From IMG/VR virus record IMGVR_UViG_648276671_000007, positions 1 through 21,537 of that record: DNA of 21,537 nucleotides; one strand, 5' to 3'. The position numbers and the translations under genes are program-made. This DNA comes from a virus (Duplodnaviria; Heunggongvirae; Uroviricota; Caudoviricetes). Below the pieces are notes generated by a model. The model was given only the letters and a program-made list of their open reading frames with translations, was not told the origin of the DNA and searched no databases. Positions 1 to 20,990 of this stretch are shown one piece after another; the stretch's first letter is position 1, and each line of letters starts with the position of its first letter.

Positions 1-160
1 CCCTGCGGGCCTTGCTCGCCCTGAGGACCGGTGTCACCTTTGGGACCTGTTTCACCCTGCGGGCCACGCTCACCCTGTGGACCCGTGTCGCCTTTGGGAC
101 CTGTTTCACCCTGCGGGCCTTGCTCGCCCTGAGGCCCCGTGTCGCCTTTGGGACCCGGTG
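1..160 (-). repeat. Tandem DNA repeat of about 54 bp encoding the collagen-like Gly-X-Y triplets of the fibre protein
   Basis: Near-identical 54-nt units are visible directly (for example ...ctttgggacctgtttcaccctgcgggcc... recurring); minus-strand translation is [14 protein letters not shown](Q/R)GPQ repeated. Confidence 0.8.
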
Positions 161-767
161 TTTTTGCTATCTCTTTCGCTTCTTCCAGCGCTATCTTCGC
201 ACCAGATTCATGCAACTCTGCATCTTTTGCAGCCTGTTCAGCACGCTCTGCATCCTGTGAAACCGAGAATACAATTTGTTCCACGTACTTTTTATCTTCG
301 GCAACCGCATCAGCGTTCTGCTGTATCTTACCCGCCAGTACCAGGCAGTCGTCCTTTATCTGCTGTGCATCAGCAACGTGTTGCCTGGCCTGTTGCTCGC
401 TTCCCGCTGCCGCTTCAGCGCTCTGCTGCGCCTGCGCCACCATTTCCTCAAATCGCTTAACAACATCCGGTTTCAGATCGCCTTCATCGAGGGCAGTCAG
501 AAAGTCATTCAGCGTTCCGGGTTGTGAGTCTTCGTAAACCGAAATATCTCCGACACAATATTCCCTTTGAATACACGACCGAAGATAAACGTCATATCTT
601 CCGTTCTGCGCCTCAAAAGCATATTCTCCTGTCGCCCCTGTCACTACTGTAGCCACCGTACTCATGACAACTGCAGATGTATTCTGTCGGGCTTTCAGAA
701 TAATATGGTATCCGGACATGGGGAGTCCCGCGCCATCAATCAGCGCACCTGATATTAATACCGACAC
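1..767 (-). CDS. Side tail fibre protein, lambda Stf-like N-terminus followed by collagen-like Gly-X-Y repeats; partial, 3' end lies beyond the left edge of the window
   Basis: Manual minus-strand translation gives an open frame from a GTG at 765-767 (AGGU 7 nt upstream) to position 3, with an internal ATG at 717-719. N-terminus ...[29 protein letters not shown]...[14 protein letters not shown]... matches the remembered lambda Stf N-terminus (MAVKISGVLKDG...IQLKARRNS...[14 protein letters not shown]). Downstream are [19 protein letters not shown] repeats. Absent from the ORF track because no stop codon lies inside the window. Confidence 0.75.
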
Positions 768-791
768 TTTTATTACCTGATCCAGAAAACA

Positions 792-1880
792 TTAACCAAA
801 ATAATTGACGCCTTTTTTCTTGCCACTGGCTTTCCCCTTTGCAGAAATATCCGTGGCCAGCGACAAATTCAGCGTAAACCCCTGCCCCGGTGCCAGTGAA
901 AACGCCACCGACTCAGCCTGCCAGTAATGATCCTCACGCACACCAAATCCCTGCGTGATAAAACGCATTTCCGCCCCTGCTTTCAGCAGGGCCGGTCTGC
1001 AGGGCAGCGTTATCGTCATCTGGCGTCCGGCTTTCTGCACACGTTTAACCTTCGACTCTGCACAGTGTTTTGCCGTGCCCTGGTCAGGCTGGGTAAACGG
1101 ATGTCGTTTGTCTGTGGATTCAACATCCACTTTAACTTCACGCGTGCGTCCGTCACGGGCATCAAAATACCGGACACCCACTTTCCCGCTCTTTTTGTCC
1201 CCTTTTGCACCACCCGCAGCGCCCTGCCGCTCACCTTCACGATAATCCCAGTCTGATACCATTCCCGGCGTAATGGTTATCTCAGGTGCATTTCTGCCCC
1301 CTGCGCTCTGCGATGCCCCATATTCCAGAAACAACCAGTATCCACTGGTCGGTTTACTGGTGGCACCGTACATGCCCGCAATGCGGGACAGGAGGGCCGC
1401 ATCAGATTCTGACGACTGCATCACCCACGGAATATGAATATCTGCCAGCGCCGGTGAAACCCGCGCCACCAGATTATTTTCAGTGGCGATGGTTTTCACC
1501 AGATCGCCCAGCGTGATATCGCTGAAGTCCCGGGTTTTCAGAGCCGTAACATCTGCACCATGCCTGGACGCATTCATGGGGGCGGCTGTGGCATAAATGG
1601 TGATCCGGCGGGGAGGACCACCGCTTGCCACCTGGCAGACAGTAAAGCTGCCTTTATTGACCAGATTTCCGTTGAATCCCAGCCCCAGCGTTAACACCGA
1701 GCCTTTCGGTGGCAATGCCAGCGTCTCGCTGAACAGCGTTATCATCAGTTCATCGGATCGTTTTGTGGCGGCACCATTATCGGTATAACGCAGTTCAGCC
1801 AGCCCCCGCTTTATGGCCTTCGTGATATCCTCACCTTCCGCTGTCAGGCTGAAATCCGGCTGATATTCATTCAGTCCCAT
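792..1880 (-). CDS. D: P2 gpD-like tail protein
   Basis: 362-aa ORF; position at the end of the tail cluster after U and X, and similarity in pattern to remembered P2 gpD. Overlaps the upstream X gene by 10 nt. Confidence 0.8.
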   Translation of the reverse strand: MGLNEYQPDFSLTAEGEDITKAIKRGLAELRYTDNGAATKRSDELMITLFSETLALPPKGSVLTLGLGFNGNLVNKGSFTVCQVASGGPPRRITIYATAAPMNASRHGADVTALKTRDFSDITLGDLVKTIATENNLVARVSPALADIHIPWVMQSSESDAALLSRIAGMYGATSKPTSGYWLFLEYGASQSAGGRNAPEITITPGMVSDWDYREGERQGAAGGAKGDKKSGKVGVRYFDARDGRTREVKVDVESTDKRHPFTQPDQGTAKHCAESKVKRVQKAGRQMTITLPCRPALLKAGAEMRFITQGFGVREDHYWQAESVAFSLAPGQGFTLNLSLATDISAKGKASGKKKGVNYFG

Positions 1881-2089
1881 AACTGAAACGTCTCCTTTTC
1901 CTCCGGTTCATATGTCCAGTCCGGCAACACGATTTCCACGCCTGCCGGATAGACCGGGCCACGGTCAGCCAGCCCGGGATTGGCTTCCAGTACCGCCGCC
2001 AGTGACTGGTTAAGTCCGGCGCTGCCATAGTGTCTCTGACAGATGTCATCCAGCATATCGCCGTCAGTGGTCCGCCAGTTTTTCGCCAT
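1871..2089 (-). CDS. X: P2 gpX-like tail protein X (LysM-like)
   Basis: 72 aa; MAKNWRTTDGDMLDDICQRHYG...LEANPGLA...LPD resembles P2 gpX (MKTFALQGDTLDAICVRYYG...LAANPGLA). The U-X-D order matches R-type pyocin and P2-like tail clusters. Confidence 0.8.
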   Translation of the reverse strand: MAKNWRTTDGDMLDDICQRHYGSAGLNQSLAAVLEANPGLADRGPVYPAGVEIVLPDWTYEPEEKETFQLWD

Positions 2090-2558
2090 AGTATTTCAGC
2101 TCCAGTGTGAACGTTTTATTCTTCGGCGCACCGCCGGGAAGAAAGGACGTGGTGTTATCTGAATAGGCGGTCGCCACGAAATACCCCATCACATCACCAG
2201 TGCTCGAGACCAGAAGGTGCGGGGCCGGATTGTCATCCACCATCTGAACCAGTGAATTAAGGGCATCCATTCCCACACCGTCACGAAATCCTGCATGTAC
2301 CATACCGTCAAGGCTTATCGTTCTGGCGCTCTTGCCGGTATACTGCAGCAGGTCGTTCTTTCCGATAAGCTGCTGTTCGTCCCATCGCCATTCCATGGTG
2401 CGCTTCATGGCGTTATAGGCTGCCGTATCAATACTGAATTCAAACTCACCAAACGACAGCATGACGCGGGAAGCCACCTCCGTTAATGAGCCCACTGCGT
2501 CCCATGCTTCGCGCTCAAGCCGGTTTACGCCCCAGCCCAGTAAATCCACCATCTTCAC
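2064..2558 (-). CDS. U: P2 gpU-like tail protein
   Basis: 164 aa; sits between tape measure and X; C-terminal motif TFTLELKYYGE resembles the gpU family; ATGA overlap with the tape-measure stop. Confidence 0.7.
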   Translation of the reverse strand: MKMVDLLGWGVNRLEREAWDAVGSLTEVASRVMLSFGEFEFSIDTAAYNAMKRTMEWRWDEQQLIGKNDLLQYTGKSARTISLDGMVHAGFRDGVGMDALNSLVQMVDDNPAPHLLVSSTGDVMGYFVATAYSDNTTSFLPGGAPKNKTFTLELKYYGEKLADH

Positions 2559-4207
2559 CCCCAGGATTCATAACCATCAGTCATACGGGAACGCTGGCCA
2601 AAATTAATATCCCCCAGATTTTTCGTTACCCTGTCTGCCAGTTGTCCGGCATCCTCGCCGGGCTTCTGAGTGATGTTAAATTCCGCCCGTATCTGATATG
2701 TGGGTTTTACTTCCACCTGGCTGATACTGCCTGGTGTATACTGAAGAGCTGAGAGGGGATCCGAATTACCCTGCCCCGGATCTGCTGCATGAAGTCCATC
2801 AATGTAGGTGCGGGATTTCTCTTTTATCGCCTTAAAATCAGGTTCTTCTTTCGGCCCCAGCATAGGGTCGAGAAATGCATCAAACTTTTTATCGTCATGA
2901 TTCCAGGGGAGATAACTGCGCGTGTCTTTATAAGCCTGTACAACCTGTTTCGTCAGGTCCGGATTTTGCCTGAGCAGTTCATCAAACCATTCTCCCTGGC
3001 CGTTTTTCTGCGCCACCGCTCTCGCCAGCTCCGGTGACCCCATTTTTGCCAGATATTCCAGTACCTCTCGCCGGTCCTCTCGCGGACCATCTGCCAGCCC
3101 CCACTCAATGGCTTTCTGCGTTATTCCGGCAAGAACTTTTCCGAATTTCCACATCCATGCGATCATGTCGATCAGCGCCGGCAGGGCATCATCGCGGATA
3201 AATGCCCGGATTTTTTCCAGTCCACCATCCTTAAACCAGGCCGCAAGGTCATCCGTCACCTGTTGAATATGGGGTCCGAGCTCCTTCCCCAGTTGCCCGC
3301 TGATTTCATCAATGGAAGAGCTCAGAACATTACGGAGATTTGACAGCGCCATATGTCCCTGAACCGCGCCATCAGCCCCGGCCTTTGTCACCAGGTTATA
3401 GCGTTTTTGTTCGCTGATAAGCTCCCGGTAAGTTTTTCCTGACAGACGCATCCAGGTCAGAATTTTATTGGCTTCTCCACCAAACAGTGCATCTGCCATC
3501 CCCGCCGCCTGCTGCTCATCCTTTACCTGCAGTAAGCGATCAAACAAAAATTCGACCTGCTCCTGGTTGTTTTTTCCGGCCATTACACCCGCTTTCAGCC
3601 CCAGTTTGCCGAAAACATCCTGAATAGCCCCTTTATCTGATGCGCCATTGTCATCATCAAAAACCTTGTTCCGGTACTCCTCAAACAAATCACCAAAGTT
3701 TTCGCCGTTCAGCCCCATCTGTCGGCCCAGTGAATCCCACGCCACGTAGGTTTCATAGTCCACCCCGTAGCTCCGCGCTATCCCTGCCCGCTCTGCCGTT
3801 TCCGAATTCCGGTTCAGTACCGCGCTGGCACCTGCTGCCAGCATCATCCCGGAACCAACCGAAAGCCCGAGCCCGGTTTTAAGAACAGTCCCGGTCCGTC
3901 CTTTCCAGCGAGCCAGGCGCTCTGCCCGTTCAAGCTGGCGATTAAACCGCTCCTGCTCAGTTGCAGCATCATTGATTTTCCGCTTCAGCTTTTCATACCG
4001 CTTTCGCAGATCGGTAATATCCTGCCCGGCCAGCACGCCAGCCTGAATTTTTCGTTTCAGTACGTCCTGCTGACGCGTCAGGCGTGCCACTTCCCGTGTC
4101 GCACCAGCCAGACCTCGCTTCAGTCCCTCTGTCGATTTTTTCCACGACGGGTCAATGGTGCCACCGATCCGGATATTCGCTCTGAGCTTATCGCCGACCG
4201 TTGCCAT
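2555..4207 (-). CDS. T: Tail tape measure protein (550 aa)
   Basis: Long ORF directly downstream of the E/E' chaperone pair; Ala/Gly/Leu-rich central region typical of tape measure proteins; start overlaps the end of the predicted E' extension. Confidence 0.8.
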   Translation of the reverse strand: MATVGDKLRANIRIGGTIDPSWKKSTEGLKRGLAGATREVARLTRQQDVLKRKIQAGVLAGQDITDLRKRYEKLKRKINDAATEQERFNRQLERAERLARWKGRTGTVLKTGLGLSVGSGMMLAAGASAVLNRNSETAERAGIARSYGVDYETYVAWDSLGRQMGLNGENFGDLFEEYRNKVFDDDNGASDKGAIQDVFGKLGLKAGVMAGKNNQEQVEFLFDRLLQVKDEQQAAGMADALFGGEANKILTWMRLSGKTYRELISEQKRYNLVTKAGADGAVQGHMALSNLRNVLSSSIDEISGQLGKELGPHIQQVTDDLAAWFKDGGLEKIRAFIRDDALPALIDMIAWMWKFGKVLAGITQKAIEWGLADGPREDRREVLEYLAKMGSPELARAVAQKNGQGEWFDELLRQNPDLTKQVVQAYKDTRSYLPWNHDDKKFDAFLDPMLGPKEEPDFKAIKEKSRTYIDGLHAADPGQGNSDPLSALQYTPGSISQVEVKPTYQIRAEFNITQKPGEDAGQLADRVTKNLGDINFGQRSRMTDGYESWG

Positions 4208-4627
4208 AACACTGCTTCCTCTCTTCCGCCTCTGCCAGCATCATTGTCACAAAATCCTCATACGGCAGTGTCATCACATCTCCGGGTGACCACCCGAACC
4301 ATACTCCGGCACGCCGTATCGCCATCAGGATGTTTTCTTCTTCCGCCGGACCGGCGGCAGCAAAAAAACATTAAACTGCCGCTCCAGGGCCAGGTAATCA
4401 CACGCTTCCATGTTCATCATATCCGCCGCGTCCATCCCGCACAGACCGGCAATCATATCCAGATCGGCCTCAGCTTCCGGTTTGGTACTCCGCCGATGCA
4501 ACAGACGATCGCGGACGGTAGGCGCTCGCATGGTAACGTGCGTGATCGTCTGTCCTGATGCGGCGACATACGGCACGGATAACACAATTTCCACGCTGCT
4601 GGCAGGAACGCTGTTTTTTTCCGACAT
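4188..4627 (-). CDS. Predicted E+E' fusion product made by a -1 programmed frameshift at the slippery site 4361-4367
   Basis: mRNA reads AAU GUU UUU UUG CUG; heptamer U_UUU_UUG at 4367..4361. The -1 frame is open from the heptamer for about 56 codons (AAAGPAEEENILMAIRRAGVWFGW...NGRR) to a UAA at 4188-4190, overlapping the tape-measure start. Same topology as the P2 E/E' and lambda G/GT frameshifts. Confidence 0.6.
4325..4627 (-). CDS. E: P2 gpE-like tail assembly chaperone (zero-frame product)
   Basis: About 100 aa between tube and tape measure; ends ...NVFLLPPVRRKKKTS; contains the U_UUU_UUG slippery heptamer near its 3' end. Start preferred at ATG 4625-4627 (GGAG 6 nt upstream) rather than ATG 4631-4633. 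Confidence 0.7.
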   Translation of the reverse strand: MSEKNSVPASSVEIVLSVPYVAASGQTITHVTMRAPTVRDRLLHRRSTKPEAEADLDMIAGLCGMDAADMMNMEACDYLALERQFNVFLLPPVRRKKKTS

Positions 4628-4637
4628 AAGCATCTCC

Positions 4638-4667
4638 TTTAAAAAAGAAAAGGCGGCCAGAGCCGCC
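4638..4667 (-). terminator. Intrinsic terminator-like hairpin plus U-tract between the tube gene and the E chaperone gene
   Basis: Minus-strand sequence AGGCGGC-TCTG-GCCGCCT followed by TTTCTTTTTTAAA; lies between the tube stop (4688) and the E start. Confidence 0.55.
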
Positions 4668-4687
4668 TGAATGACAGGATCCCCGGA

Positions 4688-5206
4688 TTAAACCCGGATG
4701 ATTTTTTTCAGATCCGCCAGAACATTAACGCCGTTAATACGACGTACAAATTCCTCCGGAATAATGCAGATGGTTTCCACACCGTCGACAGTCTGACGGT
4801 AATAACTCAGCGACATTTCCACCGTCACCGAAGCCTCAGCCTGTGACGTTGCCGGGCGCGCATCCGGCGTGATACTGGTGATCATCCCCTGCAGGATTTC
4901 CACCTGTCCGCTGGTCGCATTCCCCACCTGATAACCCTGGCGGACAACAATCTCCGGCGAATAAAGTCCGGCCTGTAATCCCAGCAGCGTCAGCATGGCA
5001 ACATCGTAGCCATAAATTTTAAACGAGCAGGTCAGCGCTTCCATACCGTCATCCACTGCCACTGGTGCATCCATTGCGCCGGTTTTGATATCCACTGTCG
5101 TGATATTAATGGCAGGCGGCGTGTATTCATGCGCCCCCTGAAGACGGATCCCGCCAGGAAGAAATAACGCCCATGCGCGCAACAGTTTTTTTTCACCCGT
5201 AATCAT
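4688..5206 (-). CDS. FII: Contractile-tail tube protein (P2 gpFII-like)
   Basis: 172 aa immediately downstream of the sheath gene with ATGA overlap; size and position as for P2 FII. Confidence 0.8.
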   Translation of the reverse strand: MITGEKKLLRAWALFLPGGIRLQGAHEYTPPAINITTVDIKTGAMDAPVAVDDGMEALTCSFKIYGYDVAMLTLLGLQAGLYSPEIVVRQGYQVGNATSGQVEILQGMITSITPDARPATSQAEASVTVEMSLSYYRQTVDGVETICIIPEEFVRRINGVNVLADLKKIIRV

Positions 5207-6678
5207 ACCGTCAGTTCCTCCAGCGCCAGTTTATTGTTAATCATTGCCCGCAGTGTCAGGCGCTCCAGTGGTGACTTCGGCCCAAAGTCATAATCGATAT
5301 ACAACTGCCCTGCCGCCAGGGTTTCTGCTGTATTCAGTTCATCATTCAGCCAGGCGCTGCCACCGTGGATCGCACCCAGATTTTTAAGCTGACGCATATA
5401 GGCATTAATGCTGCCAAGAATGTCGTCTGCCACATCCCGATCAAGCGGGCGATCGACATAAGGCAACATGGCCTCCTGGATACTGTCCTCAATCACATCT
5501 GCAGTGCGACGTACCGACTCAAAGCGCCACTGACTGTGGGATGAGCACAGACGGTTACCCCAGTGTTTAAAACCGTCATGGCGAATAATGGTGGAGATGT
5601 TTTCCATGTTCAGCAGGTTTGCCGTGCAGTTCTGCTCCCCGAGAATAAACGTATCCACCTGCTCCAGACCGGTGATATTCATCACGTCCTGGTTTGATTT
5701 GGACCACCACCACCCTTTTTCATAATCAATACGGGCACGCAGCCCGGCAGCACGAGCCGAATATGGACGAAATACCGTTTGCCCGCTGTCATCCGTCACT
5801 GACACGCGCGGACGCAGCAGCTCCACACGCCCGCCAAATGACGCGCGCCGCTGAACCACATCCTGCGACGTTGACATTGAGGGCGAGTCAATATAGGCCA
5901 CAGCACGCAACTTCGCGGCATACGTTTCCAGCGCCTTTGCCACGCCATCATCCTCACTGTACCCCGTGGCAATGAGGATGCGCGGTTGATAGCCTGTCAC
6001 GCCCTTACTTTCTGTCAGCGCCTCCATGGCCTGAATCACCGCCGCACGCTGTTCGCCCTCTTTCGCCTTTGTTTTACTTTCTGCGCGCACCACAATCACC
6101 AGCGCACCAGTCTGGTCAAAAATATCACGCAGGGCCGGGTATAATGTTCCGGCGGTGCCCAGTTTCCCTGCCTGAGTAATGGCCCCTGCCACCACCACCG
6201 GTGTATTGACCGGGAACGCCTCATCTTCTCCGCCGGATAACGTCAGGCTGAACGGCGACACCACTTTATTTTCAGCGCCTCCTGCATTCAGAGTGCTGAC
6301 CGCCGCCGTCACAGGCGAATCCCCCAGCGCATTCACCACTTCAGTCACACGGTCAGCCGTGGCGTTAATCTGGCTGTGTTCGTCCGTCCCCAGCGTTATC
6401 GTCAGGGTTGTGCCTTTCAGCGATGCCGCTGTCTGCGCGTTTTGTTCTGTGGCAGCCACGGCAACAACCGAAATCTTATTACCGACCCGACCTTCCTGTT
6501 TCGCCGTGAAATCCAGCGCCGTTCCCAGCAGCCAGGAGCCGGCTGTGCCGGAAGCGCACACGCCACCAGAGGCGTATGGCGCTGTCCCCACCAGGCCAAT
6601 CACTGCCGTGGAGATGGTCTGCACGGCAACCGTGCCTGTCGTCAGTTCAATGGTTTCAACACCATGTAGTCCGGACAT
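5203..6678 (-). CDS. FI: Contractile-tail sheath protein (P2 gpFI-like)
   Basis: Start chosen at ATG 6676-6678 (MSGLHGVETIELTTGTVAVQTISTAVIGLVGTA), with GGGAGA SD upstream; matches the P2 FI N-terminus ([34 protein letters not shown]) and C-terminus (LYIDYDFGPKSPLERLTLR versus LYIDYDYTPVPPLENLTLR). The 541-aa ORF in the track carries an unsupported 50-aa N-terminal extension. Confidence 0.9.
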   Translation of the reverse strand: MSGLHGVETIELTTGTVAVQTISTAVIGLVGTAPYASGGVCASGTAGSWLLGTALDFTAKQEGRVGNKISVVAVAATEQNAQTAASLKGTTLTITLGTDEHSQINATADRVTEVVNALGDSPVTAAVSTLNAGGAENKVVSPFSLTLSGGEDEAFPVNTPVVVAGAITQAGKLGTAGTLYPALRDIFDQTGALVIVVRAESKTKAKEGEQRAAVIQAMEALTESKGVTGYQPRILIATGYSEDDGVAKALETYAAKLRAVAYIDSPSMSTSQDVVQRRASFGGRVELLRPRVSVTDDSGQTVFRPYSARAAGLRARIDYEKGWWWSKSNQDVMNITGLEQVDTFILGEQNCTANLLNMENISTIIRHDGFKHWGNRLCSSHSQWRFESVRRTADVIEDSIQEAMLPYVDRPLDRDVADDILGSINAYMRQLKNLGAIHGGSAWLNDELNTAETLAAGQLYIDYDFGPKSPLERLTLRAMINNKLALEELTV

Positions 6679-6691
6679 ACATTTCTCCCAT

Positions 6692-6714
6692 AAAAAAACC
6701 GCCCTTAAGGCGGT
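6692..6714 (-). terminator. Intrinsic terminator-like hairpin plus U-tract between tfa and the sheath gene
   Basis: Minus strand ACCGCC-TTAAG-GGCGGT followed by TTTTTTT, in the 55-bp gap between the tfa stop (6734) and the sheath start (6678). Confidence 0.55.
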
Positions 6715-6733
6715 CTGTTGATTAACTTCTTTT

Positions 6734-7264
6734 TCAGGTGTTCTGTGGAGGTGCTGGCCACTCAATGGCGTTATAAGACGATTCATCAGTAACCTGACTG
6801 AAATCAAGCGATTTAAGTGCCCTGGCATAAAGCAGCCATGCCTTCAATTGTTCTTTGTCATCATCACTGATAATTTCAAGAATCAATTCAGCCTTCCAGT
6901 CAGAAGTGATATCTGCAGCACGGGAATACAACCAACGTCGATGCTCTTCTGCTTTCTGCTGATAATTGACAGACTTAGGCACAATCTTTCCATCAATATA
7001 CAACCAGTTTCCATCAATTGACATCTCTGCAGGAACTGCACTGACTGCAACTTCAGCCACACTCGCGTTAACAGGAAACAAGGAGGAAACATCCTGACTA
7101 AAACTGATAATTACATTACTGTTGTCATAAACGACTTTAACCGTATCAGGAGAAAATAATTTCTGACATTCATACCAGTCCTGTCCGTCTTCAGACATAA
7201 GGTAAGATGCATTTACGAGCATGTTTTCTGGTGTGTAAGGTTTAAAACTCTTAATATTCAGCAT
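6734..7264 (-). CDS. Tail fibre assembly protein (Tfa / P2 gpG-like), copy 2
   Basis: 176 aa; ...YTPENM...SEDGQDWYE...PDTVKVVYDNSNVI...IEWPAPP resembles P2 gpG ([30 protein letters not shown]...EWPEMP). Confidence 0.8.
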   Translation of the reverse strand: MLNIKSFKPYTPENMLVNASYLMSEDGQDWYECQKLFSPDTVKVVYDNSNVIISFSQDVSSLFPVNASVAEVAVSAVPAEMSIDGNWLYIDGKIVPKSVNYQQKAEEHRRWLYSRAADITSDWKAELILEIISDDDKEQLKAWLLYARALKSLDFSQVTDESSYNAIEWPAPPQNT

Positions 7265-7281
7265 ATTTTACCTTTTGATAT

Positions 7282-7812
7282 TTAATGTGAATTCTCAGGA
7301 TCACAAGGCCATTTAATACTATCAAATGACGATTTATCATGAATGTGATTAAAATCAATATTCTTTAAATTTCTGATGTACATCCGCCATAATTTCAGCA
7401 TTTCTTTTTCCCCATTATTAATTATTCCCAGAAGTAAATCTGTTTTCTTGTCGGATATTTCCCGTTCAGCAATCGCCGTAAGACGTGCTCGTTCCGACTC
7501 AGCCAGCAGTCTGTAATCAACAGGAACCGGCAGTACTTCACCGTCTTTATAATACCAGCGCGCCTCTATACAAAAGCCATCCGGTAGTTCATCCACTTCC
7601 ACAATGGTGAAACCTGCCGGATAAAGCCGGGATACGTCTTCCGCCATTGAATAAATAACACCGGTTTCAGGATGCGTGCACAGCTTGTATTTCTTCGCGA
7701 ATTTATCCAGTGATTCATAAAAATCCTGCCCGTCTTCACTACGGAAATACTGAACACCTTCACCATAAGGCATGTTTTCCGGGTAATAACGCGTGACATT
7801 TCTGAGTTCCAT
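7282..7812 (-). CDS. Tail fibre assembly protein (Tfa-like), copy 1
   Basis: Paralogous to the neighbouring tfa (YYPENMPYG...SEDGQDFYE...IKWPCDP). Start preferred at the internal Met (MELRNVTRYYPENM) at 7812 rather than the ORF-track start at 7848. Confidence 0.75.
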   Translation of the reverse strand: MELRNVTRYYPENMPYGEGVQYFRSEDGQDFYESLDKFAKKYKLCTHPETGVIYSMAEDVSRLYPAGFTIVEVDELPDGFCIEARWYYKDGEVLPVPVDYRLLAESERARLTAIAEREISDKKTDLLLGIINNGEKEMLKLWRMYIRNLKNIDFNHIHDKSSFDSIKWPCDPENSH

Positions 7813-7826
7813 TATTTTTGCCTTAA

Positions 7827-16582: not shown

Positions 16583-18143
16583 CGCCTTTTTCTCCCGTTG
16601 TCTGTCGGATCTGCTGCTGAAACGTGTCCTTTATCCAGATGGGGCGCGGAAGACCCGCGGCCTGTCGCTCCTGACTTTCACGCAGTTGCTGGCGGAAAAT
16701 CTCCTGATAGTCATCGCCCATCAGGGCCAGCTCCTTCTCGTACGTGCTCAGGCCACCTTCAATACGCATCACCGCTTCCTGTACTTCCTTGAGACCATCA
16801 ATCGCCATGCGACCGGCACCAATCCACTCGGCACGGCACCATCCGGAACGGGCCTCCCAGAATGAGAAACGGGATTTCGGCGGGCGGATCACACCGCGAA
16901 TAAGGGCTTCCTCCAGCCAGCAGGCAAACATCTGTGATGCCAGTCGGCTGGCCACAAATTTTCGTTTGCCCATAAAATACCGCCACGACTCATTGGCGGA
17001 TGCCCTGGCACTGGAATAACTGACCTGTGAATAATCACGGGAAAGCTGTTCATAGGACACGCCCAGTCCGGCTGCGATGTAGCGTAACAGCGCTTTTTCC
17101 AGTTCAGAGAACCCATTATCCGCATTCTGCGCTGTCTGCAGATTCAGTGAATCCCCCGGATAAAGGTGTGGAATACGGACCCCGCCCAGCTTTACCGTAT
17201 TGGTGGCGTAATAACGCGCGTAGCCTTTCATGATGGTGTTCAGGGGATTTTTACCGCCATCTCCCACCCCGGCGATATATTCAAATGCTTTTTCCGAATC
17301 CAGTGTGGATTCAATCGTCGCGGCATACATTGCGCGCACCACCGCCGACTGCAGTTGCGTGGCCTGCAGTGTGTCGAGCATCTTGAGGCGCTCCATGACA
17401 GAATAAAACTGGTTGGCCCCGCGCGTCTGTCCGTCCTCCTGCGGCTGAAACACATGGATCATGCCCGGTCGCCCGGAGGGCAGCGTCGCCGCAATCCGCG
17501 TCCAGTTGCTGACACCGTAACCGGGCCAGTCATCTTCCTGAACATGGTAAGCCAGCGCTTTTCCGTACCGGTTGATTTCCACCCCGGCACGCATAAAACG
17601 ATCGCCAGTACCATAACCGGGTGTACTGACACGTTTCGGGCTGATGGTCTTGAATTTCGTCCGGAATAATGACGTGGACTCTGCATCCCAAACGGGCTGG
17701 ACAAAAACTTCACCGTTAAACGTATGAACGCCCACCCCTTCACGAATGAATTCGGTAAACGAACGACGCCCTTCCACATCCATCGTGCCAAACACCGGAT
17801 CGCAGAATTCCATCCACGCCGCCTCAACATCTTCAATAAAGGCATGTGAATCGGCTTCCGACATTCCCAGCCAGCGCCAGTTGGGCCGGTAACTCAGACG
17901 AAACATGTGTCCGACGATATGGTCTTTATGAATTTCCACCGCATTTGCGGCAATACCATTATTGCGGACCAGATCATCCGCACGGGCGTTACCCAGTTGA
18001 ATGGAAGGCAGTAGCGCCACATCGGCACTTTCCGGCGCGGGCAGCCATTCCGCAAGTTGCCCGCCAAATCCGGTACCACCTCCGGAATATCCCATACTCT
18101 GCCGCAGTGGCTGACCGTGCAGATCCACCAGTTCCCCGTTCAC
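16572..18143 (-). CDS. B: Portal protein, lambda gpB-like
   Basis: 523 aa; ...GGGTGFGGQL...ALLPSIQLGNARADDLVRNNGIAANAV...LRYIAAGLGVSYEQLSRDYSQVSYSSARASANESW...GRMAIDGLKEVQEAVM matches lambda gpB. Confidence 0.95.
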   Translation of the reverse strand: MNGELVDLHGQPLRQSMGYSGGGTGFGGQLAEWLPAPESADVALLPSIQLGNARADDLVRNNGIAANAVEIHKDHIVGHMFRLSYRPNWRWLGMSEADSHAFIEDVEAAWMEFCDPVFGTMDVEGRRSFTEFIREGVGVHTFNGEVFVQPVWDAESTSLFRTKFKTISPKRVSTPGYGTGDRFMRAGVEINRYGKALAYHVQEDDWPGYGVSNWTRIAATLPSGRPGMIHVFQPQEDGQTRGANQFYSVMERLKMLDTLQATQLQSAVVRAMYAATIESTLDSEKAFEYIAGVGDGGKNPLNTIMKGYARYYATNTVKLGGVRIPHLYPGDSLNLQTAQNADNGFSELEKALLRYIAAGLGVSYEQLSRDYSQVSYSSARASANESWRYFMGKRKFVASRLASQMFACWLEEALIRGVIRPPKSRFSFWEARSGWCRAEWIGAGRMAIDGLKEVQEAVMRIEGGLSTYEKELALMGDDYQEIFRQQLRESQERQAAGLPRPIWIKDTFQQQIRQTTGEKGDAS

Positions 18144-18349
18144 AACCCCACTCCTGCCGGGCCGCGACGCCGTCCGGATACGCCCAGCGCACTTTCCAGC
18201 TCGTCAATATACTGACGCAGTTCGCCAATCGTCGCCCGCGAATACTGAACCTGACGCCCGTCCTTGCTGACGGAAACCACAGCACGTCCGATCATCAGTT
18301 CATGTAATGCCCGGCGGGCATCACAAAGCATTTCATGCGTATAAACCAT
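18140..18349 (-). CDS. W: Head-tail joining protein, lambda gpW-like
   Basis: 69 aa; ...ARRALHELMIGRAVVSVSKDGRQVQYSRATIGELRQYIDELE...RRRGPAG matches lambda gpW ([27 protein letters not shown]...RRRGPAG). Confidence 0.9.
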   Translation of the reverse strand: MVYTHEMLCDARRALHELMIGRAVVSVSKDGRQVQYSRATIGELRQYIDELESALGVSGRRRGPAGVGL

Positions 18350-18352
18350 CTT

Positions 18353-20269
18353 TTATCCTCCACTCAGTGCAGCCGCGATTTCTTCCAGACTCATCTCATC
18401 GTCGTCCTGCTCATCTCTTCTGGCACGGGCCAGTGCTTCAAGATCAAGCTGCCACCGCTGAACTGAAATACGCAGGGCAGCATAGGCATATACCAGGCAG
18501 TCGAGGGCTTCGTTGCGTCGCCCTTTTTTATCCCACAGCAGTTTCACCCTGCCATTAACCACCTTCTCCACCAGTTCTTCCGCCACAATCTGACGCGCCT
18601 CTTCTTCCGAAAAAATGTCGGGATTATCCGGAAAACGGAAGGTATACGGGGCGGCTTCACTGGCAGAGGCCACCGGCAGGGCAAAACGGGCATACAGCAT
18701 TTCCTTGACGGTATCGGAGCCCACCTCACACAAAAACACACCACGCTGGTTGCGCTTTTTGGGCATGGTGATCACCGGCTTGCCGTACACCGATGCTCCT
18801 TTTATGGGAAGCACAAAAAAAGTGCCGTGTTTTCTGGAACGCTGATACACAATGTCCTGGTCAATACCGCCGGTATCCCAGCAGACGCGGGAAATGGAAA
18901 TTTCAGTACCGTCAGCATGGCTGTATTTTTTCCGGATCACCGCATCAACACGTTTAAGGGTGTCCTCGTCTTCCGGTCGCCCCATGATAATTTGCTTATC
19001 AATCAGAAAGGCTTCTTCGCCTGGAGCCCAGCCCCACACATAAATTTCATAGCGATCTTTCTGGGAGTCGATCCCGGCAGTCAGGTAAACCACCCGCAGG
19101 GGAACCTGCGCGCCATAGTGGCAGACTTTTTCCAGCAACAACTCAAAGCTCAGTTTTTCTGCCACGGCCTCTTCATAGGGCTCCCCGAGCGTGGTGTTAA
19201 TGAATGTCTTGACGCCGTTCGGATCCTTTAGTGCATCCAGCCAGTCATAAACAATCTGCACCCAGGTGGTGAACGGACTGTACGCTGTCCACACGTGGTA
19301 CGTGATTGAGCGCGGTGGCGGCATCTCCTCATCACCGGCGCTGTAAAATGCCAGGCCGTCGCGCGTCCACATCCCGGTATTGTCACAAATCCAGCGTCCG
19401 TCGGTCTGGTCAAGTTCCGACTGGCGGATCACACAGCCATTATGTTCACACAGGTAATACACCGTTTCCGGTTTACCCTTCTCCCATTTCAGGCCAGACG
19501 GCGTCGCATCATCACCAAACTTCAGATACTGAGCCTCCCCGCAATGAGGGCAAGGGACATAAAACCGCATGAAATGCGCAGATTCATTCGCGGCTTTCTC
19601 AATCTGACAGGAACCTTTGATTTTTGGCGTTGAGCCGCGTATGGATTTAGGCCATACCGAACCTTCGATACGTTTATCACCAAGCAGCGTCGGCGAACCT
19701 TCTTTTTCCACATCCGGTTCAAACGAGGAGAGTTCGTCATAGCAGACCACATCCACAGATTTTTCACGGTAGTTTTTAGCAGCGGCACCGCCCAGGCACC
19801 AGAAACCCACACCGGAGGAAAAACGCTTCAGGGTGAGTGTATTATCGCGGTGTTTTCTGCCCAGCCATGGAGACAACGCTTTAAGGCAGGGGACATCCCG
19901 CAATGTTGCTTCCACATGTGCTTTCATAAAATCTTCAGCTGCAGAATCTGTCGGCTGAAAAAGCAGACTGTTACGGGATTTATGCTCAATAAAATACCCG
20001 ACCACGCCCAGCAGCATTTTGGTATAACCCACGCGCGCTGATTTAATCAGATTAACAGTGCGGATCCGGTCATTACCCATGCTGTTCATGATGGCAACCT
20101 GAAACGGCAGGGTCTTCCACTCTCCATCACCGTATGACGACTCTTTAGGCAGATAATAATTTTGATCAGCCCATTCAACCGGCGTCACCGGCAATGCCCT
20201 TATCAGTGGCTGCAATGCGGCTGTGACGGCGATCATCATATTATTCAGTTGTAGTTCGGATATATTCAT
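18353..20269 (-). CDS. A: Terminase large subunit, lambda gpA-like
   Basis: Start preferred at the internal MNISELQL... (ATG ending at 20269), matching lambda A MNISNSQVN...; long collinear similarity (TPVEWADQNYYLPKESSYGDGEWKTLPFQ..., RVGYTKMLLGV..., DKRIEGSVWPKSIRGSTPK..., CPHCGEAQYLKFGD...). Overlaps the 3' end of Nu1 by about 29 nt, as in lambda. Confidence 0.95.
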   Translation of the reverse strand: MNISELQLNNMMIAVTAALQPLIRALPVTPVEWADQNYYLPKESSYGDGEWKTLPFQVAIMNSMGNDRIRTVNLIKSARVGYTKMLLGVVGYFIEHKSRNSLLFQPTDSAAEDFMKAHVEATLRDVPCLKALSPWLGRKHRDNTLTLKRFSSGVGFWCLGGAAAKNYREKSVDVVCYDELSSFEPDVEKEGSPTLLGDKRIEGSVWPKSIRGSTPKIKGSCQIEKAANESAHFMRFYVPCPHCGEAQYLKFGDDATPSGLKWEKGKPETVYYLCEHNGCVIRQSELDQTDGRWICDNTGMWTRDGLAFYSAGDEEMPPPRSITYHVWTAYSPFTTWVQIVYDWLDALKDPNGVKTFINTTLGEPYEEAVAEKLSFELLLEKVCHYGAQVPLRVVYLTAGIDSQKDRYEIYVWGWAPGEEAFLIDKQIIMGRPEDEDTLKRVDAVIRKKYSHADGTEISISRVCWDTGGIDQDIVYQRSRKHGTFFVLPIKGASVYGKPVITMPKKRNQRGVFLCEVGSDTVKEMLYARFALPVASASEAAPYTFRFPDNPDIFSEEEARQIVAEELVEKVVNGRVKLLWDKKGRRNEALDCLVYAYAALRISVQRWQLDLEALARARRDEQDDDEMSLEEIAAALSGG

Positions 20270-20747
20270 TGAGTAACTCCGGCAATTTATCCCCTGTCCG
20301 CGCACACTGATTCGCTCCCTTTGCGATAAGGGTTTTCAGATAATCAATATGACGCGGCGTTAAATCCGGGAACTGTCGCTGCATGGATAAAGGAATGGAA
20401 TCAAGCGTACTGGACAACGCCATTGCCAGTTTGCTGAGAGCGAAAACGCAGAACGCTGAATCGATGAGCTTACCTTCGGTTACCTGATTTTTAAGTTTTT
20501 GAGCTACGGCCTGTTCTTCCGTCAGTTCAGCTCTGGCCCGGAGTAATCTTTCCTCCAGATCGCTCCCGTCATCAGGTGCTCTCTGATTGTGTTGCCGTCG
20601 CTCGCGATCGATTTCCAGTACGGTTTTAACGTCATAAAAAACTTCCCTCCCCCGACGCTCAACAGGAGGAACGCCCCATTTATCAAATGCCTGAACGGAT
20701 ATACCGATGGAGGAGGCCATATCGCTTTTATTCAATAAACAGGCCAT
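20241..20747 (-). CDS. nu1: Terminase small subunit, lambda gpNu1-like
   Basis: Start preferred at ATG 20745-20747 (MACLLNKSDMASSIGISVQAFDKWG..., like lambda Nu1 MEVNKKQLADIFGASIRTIQNWQ) with GGAGAGGAG directly upstream. The ORF-track start at 20786 is a TTG. Confidence 0.85.
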   Translation of the reverse strand: MACLLNKSDMASSIGISVQAFDKWGVPPVERRGREVFYDVKTVLEIDRERRQHNQRAPDDGSDLEERLLRARAELTEEQAVAQKLKNQVTEGKLIDSAFCVFALSKLAMALSSTLDSIPLSMQRQFPDLTPRHIDYLKTLIAKGANQCARTGDKLPELLNEYIRTTTE

Positions 20748-20779
20748 CTCCTCTCCATAAGCCATCGATAAAAAGTGAT

Positions 20780-20990
20780 ACAACAACCTTGTATTTTTAC
20801 TAAACCATTTGATTTAATTAATGTTTTTAGCATCAACCACATCAAAAAGCATCATCAGGTTGTTGTATTTATTTCTCTTTCTTCTTAATTATCAATGAGG
20901 TACGACAAACAATTAAACAACAACCCCCCCTCAAAAAATCTCATAAATAGCGCGTTTTTGCGCGTCTACAGACCCCCGGTGTTTCAGATT
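20780..20990 (-). other. Putative cos region (cosN/cosB-like) upstream of Nu1
   Basis: Minus strand reads ...ACACCGGGGGTCTGTAGACGCGCAAAAACGCGCTATTTATGAGATTTTTTGAGGGGGGG..., resembling the lambda cos junction ...ACGGGGCGGCGACCTCGCGGGTTTTCGCTATTTATGAAAATTTTCC.... A 10-bp inverted repeat ACAACAACCT (20780-20789) / AGGTTGTTGT (20858-20867) lies between it and the Nu1 start, where lambda has Nu1-binding R sites. Confidence 0.5.

Follow-up and report, generated by a model that had tools for sequence, protein, structure and literature searches.

An Stf-like gene with a collagen-like repeat after gpD of a contractile-tail Escherichia coli prophage, a probable accessory tail fibre

The gene for gpD, the baseplate hub or 'late control protein D', is the final canonical gene of a P2-type tail cluster, and the locus considered here raises the question of what a further gene, which begins just past gpD and resembles the side tail fibre gene stf of phage lambda, contributes to the phage that carries it. 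The locus lies at the left end of a stretch of 21,537 nt, the IMG/VR record IMGVR_UViG_648276671_000007, which we refer to as the window; the minus strand carries every gene in it, and coordinates below are window positions unless another locus is named. Window positions 1-767 (minus strand) cover the first third, from the 5' end, of the penultimate late gene in a mosaic prophage of Escherichia coli. What can be established for this gene is its structure and start codon, the homologies of its domains, the conserved junction with gpD, purifying selection and distal mosaicism. We propose with good confidence that its product is an accessory lateral tail fibre with the order PfN-PCoil-Col-Cterm, that is, a second receptor-binding set beside the gpH-type baseplate fibre, with a swappable distal end.

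The gpD gene occupies 792..1880 (minus strand; 362 aa; phrog_52, E = 2.7e-93, with a weak match to PF05954), and its E. coli homologue is annotated as 'late control protein'. Its TAA stop codon (794-792) is separated from a GTG codon (767-765) by a spacer of 24 nt (768..791), which carries an AGG(T) Shine-Dalgarno-like motif 8 nt upstream of the GTG. From there the frame is open, without a stop, for 255 codons and 2 nt up to window position 1. Each of the 13 relatives inspected, including lambda stf, L56 of phiP27, tail3 of Rac-SA53 and a RefSeq-annotated E. coli homologue, has an ATG at exactly the position of this GTG, and the protein aligns with lambda Stf from residue 1. The GTG is therefore likely to be the true start and, to judge from the alignment, differs by one A-to-G substitution from a start codon that is conserved elsewhere. 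A previous sequence-only reading of this DNA had placed an Stf-like gene with a GTG start 24 nt past the gpD stop, and this proved correct. It had also supposed that the GTG would make ATG-based gene callers truncate or miss the gene; truncation would indeed occur, at a cost of just 16 residues, but the gene is called in the source annotation and, in relatives, by PGAP. Because no promoter- or terminator-like site was found in the spacer between gpD and the fibre gene, the latter should be co-transcribed as a continuation of the tail operon. Open reading frames (ORFs) on the plus strand at 12-537 were rejected as genes, being mirror images of the GC-rich collagen repeat.

The predicted protein begins with a PfN/StfN anchor ('collar') domain (aa 1-94; 486..767, minus strand), a six-stranded beta-sandwich with a short helix. 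The PF08400 (phage_tail_N) profile is matched over its whole length (1-134 of 134) by aa 1-134 (366..767, minus strand; E = 4.8e-55), with 185.7 bits against a gathering cutoff of 26.6. The match starts at residue 1, the extreme N-terminus of the fibre protein, and a start at residues 1-4 is also seen in nearly all of the best 150 of 482 representatives with E <= 0.001. The domain shares 46% identity with residues 1-94 of lambda Stf (9E7M/9MGH; E = 2e-17; profile E = 6.5e-44), including a 14-residue motif at aa 77-90 (nt 539-498) that is identical in the two proteins, and similarity to lambda Stf is confined to aa 1-93/94. A model of aa 1-150 computed by AlphaFold without an alignment was unusable (pLDDT 52); the model based on a 46-sequence alignment (pLDDT 88) has six strands as in lambda StfN and a long helix, that is, the six-stranded beta-sandwich plus helix of the StfN fold. 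The Stf-like character of the N-terminus, which the sequence-only reading had asserted and named as a point on which it might fail, is thus upheld by the lambda Stf and PF08400 matches.

An alpha-helical segment follows (aa 95-204; 156..485, minus strand), in which the long helix of the AlphaFold model starts at aa 100. It is the counterpart of the 'PCoil' of the EPcl proteins and, by analogy with experiments on EPclA, would form a trimeric coiled coil; similarity to relatives stops within it, at about aa 150-160. The visible part of the protein ends in a collagen-like shaft (aa 205-255 plus 2 nt; 1..155, minus strand), in which Gly-X-Y runs uninterrupted from aa 205 (nt 155) with a DNA period of 54 nt, or 18 aa, and which matches PF01391 (Collagen) at aa 204-254 (E = 1.5e-8). 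The earlier description of long Gly-X-Y repeats therefore holds as to their collagen-like nature, with only 17 triplets visible before the shaft is cut at the window edge.

This edge is an artefact of assembly. Immediately beyond window position 1, scaffold GL884362.1 of E. coli TA280 (GCA_000176655.2; gap at L002:11881-12786) has a stretch of 906 N that interrupts the collagen repeat. Past the gap there are 21 further Gly-X-Y triplets (PF01391, E = 2.6e-10), an orphan C-terminal domain of about 150-152 aa and a stop codon; Collagen is the sole Pfam family found in this part. Searches of Pfam, PHROG, the PDB and phage records with the C-terminal domain gave no match, and a homologue search with it recovered only E. 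coli collagen-like fragments. The nearest complete homologue, from strain VTB97432v (L001; NZ_CP178694, with the prophage at about 3.336-3.36 Mb), is a protein of 726 aa with 372 aa of Gly-X-Y (about 124 triplets) and the same C-terminal domain. Leftward extension had been expected to recover the rest of the gene together with any downstream tfa. The gene does continue beyond the gap to its stop; the gene next downstream encodes not a Tfa but a DUF4376 protein of 197 aa (phrog_1141, "tail fiber protein"), after which come a stem-loop and a T run, evidently a terminator. Between this terminator and host zinT (L002:14311-15700) we observed an ORF of 62 aa and an ORF6N-domain gene on the opposite strand. 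Beyond the ORF6N gene lie the host genes zinT-msrPQ, 97-98.6% identical to E. coli chromosomes, and the prophage ends at L002:~15.5-15.7 kb, where the similarity to E. coli chromosomes starts. In VTB97432v (L001:8952-10614) the genes between the fibre gene and tRNA-Ser are DUF4376, DUF1353 and a second, truncated DUF4376 gene; accessory genes 3' of the fibre therefore vary among carriers. The TA280 annotation has the fibre gene as two partial coding sequences (CDSs), the second named 'BclA protein, partial'. Most relatives in the databases are likewise 'partial' CDSs at contig ends, which indicates that assemblies regularly break off in the repeats of coil and collagen, and misleading names such as 'shikimate transporter', 'M14 carboxypeptidase N/E family protein' and 'BclA protein' occur among them. 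The homologues found with the N-domain were all of at most 235 aa and mostly 'partial'; they were used for alignment, and architectures were read from IMG/VR loci.

The junction between gpD and the fibre gene is conserved. In a scan of 5426 complete E. coli genomes, with a probe counted at a coverage of at least 80%, a probe across the junction was found in 75 genomes and one for gpD alone in 74, so that essentially every E. coli prophage with the gpD family of the window has the fibre gene directly after gpD. The gene is hence not the unusual extra for which it had been taken: all E. coli genomes with this gpD family have it, and PGAP names its relatives 'prophage tail fiber N-terminal domain-containing protein'. 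The junction is also found at another chromosomal location, next to tRNA-Ser/hya in VTB97432v as against zinT in TA280. Looking beyond this family, 77 of the 80 closest N-domain relatives in IMG/VR lie in baseplate-bearing or contractile clusters and two in lambda-like ones; 27 of the 80 follow gpD, 50 follow an H-like fibre and tfa (in phiP27-like, Rac-like and D-W-J-I-H-ordered clusters) and two follow lambda tfa. Among the comparison prophages, phiP27 has annotated sheath and tube genes and rac50 of Rac-SA53 is a sheath gene (phrog_205, 2e-54). On these grounds the PfN subfamily is characteristic of prophages with contractile tails, Rac of E. coli K-12 among them. Of isolated phages, the two closest with the tail type of the window, yong2 and Chris1 (gpD 48-51% identical), are without the fibre gene, and the fibre is therefore accessory and not an essential part of the tail. 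The two cases after lambda tfa, L007 and L013 (10001-), are lambda-like contigs (J, lom, stf region, tfa) in which a second PfN gene, 84-85% identical, starts 47 nt after tfa, giving a siphovirus-type prophage with two PfN genes in tandem; both contigs end within the second gene. A conserved recombination junction 5' of the start was considered and rejected, as the spacer that follows gpD shows no relation to the one that follows tfa.

The two ends of the fibre have evolved differently. Over codons 1-134 the ratio of nonsynonymous to synonymous substitution (dN/dS) is 0.08-0.15 both against gpD-context relatives (dS 0.4-0.55) and against phiP27 and Rac (dS about 1), with a single outlier (L034, 0.28). 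Such low values at such dS imply long divergence under purifying selection, and the N-domain is no decaying remnant. Past aa ~150-160 the gpD-context proteins, which range from 405 to 1046 aa, have at least six unrelated shafts and C-termini, and none of these IMG/VR relatives has collagen; the collagen shaft and orphan C-terminus are one cassette among many. Experiments have measured recombination in the stf/tfa regions of lambda with the prophages Rac and Qin (PMC3945230). The suggestion of a recombinational host-range cassette thus applies to the distal part of the fibre, with its six or more unrelated shafts and C-termini, and not to the anchor domain.

The tail of the window already has a baseplate fibre of the gpH type, as the sequence-only reading had noted. 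This protein (7827..9083, minus strand; 418 aa) has a PF12571 tail-collar N-domain, is encoded directly after gpI and is followed by its two tandem Caudo_TAP tail-fibre-assembly genes (6734..7848, minus strand: 7282-7848, 188 aa, PF02413 at 2.5e-15; and 6734-7264, 176 aa, 5.4e-25). Comparison of PfN with the N-terminus of the H-type fibre, which had been suggested as a check, revealed no similarity, and the new fibre has neither PF12571 nor the position after gpI. We also observed that PHROG 295 (794 positions) matches window 767-222 (PfN) with profile positions 1-182 and window 9083-8613 (the H-type tail-collar N-domain) with positions 169-319, from which it follows that some phage fibres have both anchor domains in tandem. 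Chris1 has instead an invertible fibre segment with a DNA invertase, and the second tfa of the window may be a relic of such a switch. The reading of the gene as part of a second fibre set is the best supported one: the junction is fixed, the N-domain is under purifying selection, no terminator or promoter intervenes, and the same extra fibre is found in phiP27 and Rac-SA53.

The fibre is of a known kind, annotated by PGAP, namely a PF08400 protein and an EPcl-type collagen fibre, and not a gpH-type one. With lambda Stf it shares the homologous N-terminal 94 aa, the motif, the start position and a helical stalk next to the anchor, and both genes stand at the end of a late operon with a small accessory gene after them. 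The two differ in that lambda Stf has an Ala/Ser-rich coil and a gp37-like distal domain where the window fibre has a collagen shaft and an unrelated C-terminal domain, and in that lambda has a Caudo_TAP Tfa downstream where the window has DUF4376 and not PF02413. Beyond the first ~94-134 residues the fibre is thus, as far as sequence comparison goes, not an orthologue of lambda Stf. The EPcl proteins of prophages of enterohaemorrhagic E. coli (EPclA-D; PMC3368898) have the same order of PfN, PCoil, collagen and C-terminal globular domain and the same GP(Q/K)G(E/D)(Q/T) triplet pattern, and the window fibre has both the helix after PfN and the uninterrupted (Gly-X-Y)n of this architecture. In Pfam searches the part past the gap contains neither PfC (PF06820) nor a Pf2 repeat between Col domains, as types A and B would have; with its non-PfC C-terminus the fibre fits EPclD, a type whose defining feature is a C-terminus that has no relation to PfC and which includes very long Col domains such as the 322 aa of Stx2-86 gp21 (PMC3368898). 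The described EPcl members were, however, assigned to Stx and lambdoid prophages of podo- and siphovirus type, whereas the window fibre follows gpD of a contractile tail. Closest in setting are L56 of phiP27 and StfR of Rac (tail3 of Rac-SA53), whose PfN is 77% identical and which are likewise followed by DUF4376 and form a second fibre in a contractile-tail prophage already equipped with an H-like fibre and Tfa. In contrast to the window fibre, they stand directly after H-tfa in a Mu-like order instead of after gpD and have no collagen shaft, and the remaining virion proteins of these prophages are unrelated to those of the window at BLAST level. The lateral fibre gp61 of the Stx podovirus phi24B resembles the window fibre in its N-terminal beta-sandwich, in the coil beginning at ~residue 100, in the collagen-like shaft and in the small globular domain at the C-terminus; it is present as six trimers, which dock on a dedicated adaptor, gp62, of the short tail (preprint, bioRxiv 10.64898/2026.04.10.717836). 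Among the ORFs of the window no adaptor like gp62 was noticed, although no search aimed at one was made.

From homology and gene position we infer that the protein is assembled into the virion and binds a receptor. The chains would trimerise through the helical segment and the collagen helix, and the three N-domains (the beta-sandwich, aa 1-94) would clamp a ring of virion proteins. The collagen triple helix could then act as a thin, heat-stable spacer that holds the C-terminal domain far from the particle, so that this domain would be the first to contact the host surface receptor, while the DUF4376 product may aid folding or form part of the tip. EPclA provides a precedent for such a particle, being a trimeric dumbbell of about 55-60 nm, with melting temperatures of 42 °C for the collagen and about 50 °C for the coil; its PfN alone is monomeric (PMC3368898). 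The anchor would stay with the phage lineage and the distal part be swapped by recombination, with a change of host range as the outcome.

Where the ring would lie is a matter on which the evidence is divided. In lambda, the gpV/gpM junction is encircled by a collar of 12 Stf copies that come from four trimeric fibres, and the contact is made by the beta4-beta5 loop (PMC12617516). The sequence-only reading took the N-domain for an anchor of siphovirus tail tips. That is too narrow, since the domain also serves podoviruses of the phi24B/933W type and, remotely, the neck of the myovirus XM1. Furthermore, the window tail is contractile, with sheath and tube genes, so that a gpV/gpM-like docking site would be unexposed, and the putative contact loop (beta4-beta5), which was located by eye with the help of the sequence alignment and the strands of the model, appears different. 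We tentatively favour the neck, although at a little less than an even chance, because the lambda-type collar site would be covered by the sheath and because similar folds solved in myoviruses belong to neck fibres: gp40 of the Vibrio myophage XM1 (the collar spike, PDB 7KJK), six trimers of which are bound to the neck proteins gp4 and gp5 (PMC10457771), and gp82 of A-1(L), whose N-terminal part binds the gp5 pentadecamer of the neck (PMC10966104). Like these, the window fibre combines an N-terminal Ig-like domain with a coil, here presumed to be trimeric. If it is a neck fibre, the neck and connector genes at 11549..13222 would be candidate docking partners; by PHROG matches these are head closure Hc1 (12815-13222), Neck1/tail completion (12112-12834) and a phrog_1072 gene (11549-12115), all on the minus strand.

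Docking at the baseplate or distal tail is the main competitor, to which we give roughly a third of our belief. It would suit a gene that lies within a tail and baseplate operon and that, in clusters of the phiP27, Rac and L062 type, directly follows gpI, the H fibre and tfa, and a homologous or similar domain is placed near the tail tip in lambda and Bxb1. Against it, the tube/Dit junction that the lambda-type collar wraps is hidden in a contractile tail under the sheath and wedges, fold searches gave no StfN-like domain on any solved myovirus baseplate, and no extra adaptor gene sets the StfN-bearing clusters apart from yong2 and Chris1, every tail and neck protein of the window having a homologue in these StfN-less phages. 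A search for a docking partner common to the virion proteins of the window, phiP27 and Rac found only the distal part of the H fibre and Tfa, which we judge to reflect ordinary exchange of fibre modules. Several points weigh against the neck, or against the proposed fibre more generally. The neck-fibre genes of XM1 and A-1(L) lie far from the tail genes, whereas the window gene is in the tail/baseplate operon. XM1 gp40 is a remote homologue (24-25% identity; 18.6 bits to PF08400, below the gathering score) with a distal tailspike beta-helix, and the neck position demonstrated for it is conjecture for the window fibre. Members of the PfN subfamily, 75-90% identical, occur on scaffolds that share no other structural protein detectable by BLAST except fibre modules, and twice after lambda tfa, both of which are hard to square with one specific docking partner. 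The receptor-binding role of the C-terminal domain is suggested solely by its position; the gene, interrupted by the 906-N gap in the TA280 assembly, may not be intact in that strain; and the phage collection searched contained no close isolated relative (best gpD identity 51%), nor did we find an imaged phage of this prophage family.

Some of the same observations would suit a gene that its own virion does not use, carried as a reservoir module, as a source of fibre in trans for co-resident lambdoid phages or as a leftover of exchange. The stf/tfa regions of lambda, Rac and Qin recombine readily (PMC3945230), this PfN subfamily also stands behind lambda tfa in L007 and L013, the virion scaffolds that bear it have only fibre modules in common, and the nearest isolated relatives of the tail manage without the gene. 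We nevertheless consider this unlikely, as the gpD junction shows no exception among the 74-75 E. coli genomes that carry this gpD and recurs in 27 viral contigs, the gene is co-oriented with gpD at a distance of 24 nt with no terminator between them, and an anchor dN/dS of about 0.1 at dS 0.4-1.1 indicates long-term selection in this context. A collagen-like surface protein of the BclA/Scl type, serving the host cell as an adhesin, is very improbable. Such bacterial proteins exist, the downstream half of the gene bears the BclA name in TA280, and Ghosh et al. left a bacterial role open (PMC3368898); but that name derives from the Gly-X-Y repeats only, the protein starts with a phage fibre anchor domain whose structure is known from the lambda virion, the gene forms part of a late tail operon and has a fibre-associated DUF4376 gene next to it, and inspection of the translation by eye, with no prediction tool, revealed no signal peptide or wall anchor. 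Least probable of all is that the gene is the 5' end of an unrelated element merely abutting the prophage, a possibility that the sequence-only reading had raised against itself. The gene does stand at the extreme end of the prophage, not far from where host DNA begins, yet no integrase, att site or host gene separates it from gpD, and the presence of the same junction at two chromosomal sites, in VTB97432v and TA280, means that it travels with the prophage. We therefore retain the reading of an accessory lateral fibre of the phage itself.

The remainder of the window is the late region of the same prophage, a mosaic of head and tail modules. The head module comprises terminase, W, portal, C, D and E, its head and packaging genes (13633-20786) having ~75% DNA identity to phage 21 and lambda-like phages; the connector genes follow and then the tail module (tail and connectors, 792-13222). 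The latter is in P2 order, namely V, W, J, I, H-type fibre, two tfa, sheath, tube, chaperone, tape measure, U, X and D, and its closest isolated relatives, with 40-63% protein identity, are the Hafnia phage yong2 and the Citrobacter phage Chris1. Within the S49 protease/scaffold gene (15104-16582, 492 aa) a 138-nt unit is repeated in tandem, with 2.7 copies that are 83% identical (15229-15599, minus strand), and encodes a segment of ~46 aa repeated thrice (GREQLAQALAEQPGMTVEQAKTLLAAAPVA) in the C/Nu3-like protein. Two minus-strand ORFs are over-extended upstream: the sheath ORF (5203-6828), of 541 aa as against 491 aa in its annotated homologue, and the gpV ORF (10942-11859, with a TTG start), of 305 aa as against 207 aa.

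As to annotation, the gene needs nothing new; short-read assemblies broken in the repeats give partial CDSs and misleading names, as at this window. Its biological interest lies in the anchor. Solved structures show PfN docked on a siphovirus and a podovirus, and a remote homologue docked on the neck of a myovirus, yet the closest relatives of the window domain are mostly in contractile-tail prophages, and our literature search found nothing specific on PfN fibres of P2- or Mu-type tails, on their location in the virion, on Rac-SA53 or on myovirus prophages with a second fibre. The docking site in such tails bears on the engineering of host range by fibre swapping. We offer as a speculative proposal, more doubtful than not, that in the contractile-tail temperate phages of E. 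coli (the window family, phiP27 and the Rac type) PfN forms a neck collar bearing long, exchangeable primary-receptor fibres, with one anchor on the ring proteins of three unrelated scaffolds. If this is true, the window fibre would be a collagen rope perhaps 100 nm long, and PfN would be a near-universal 'plug' by which fibres move among podo-, sipho- and myoviruses.
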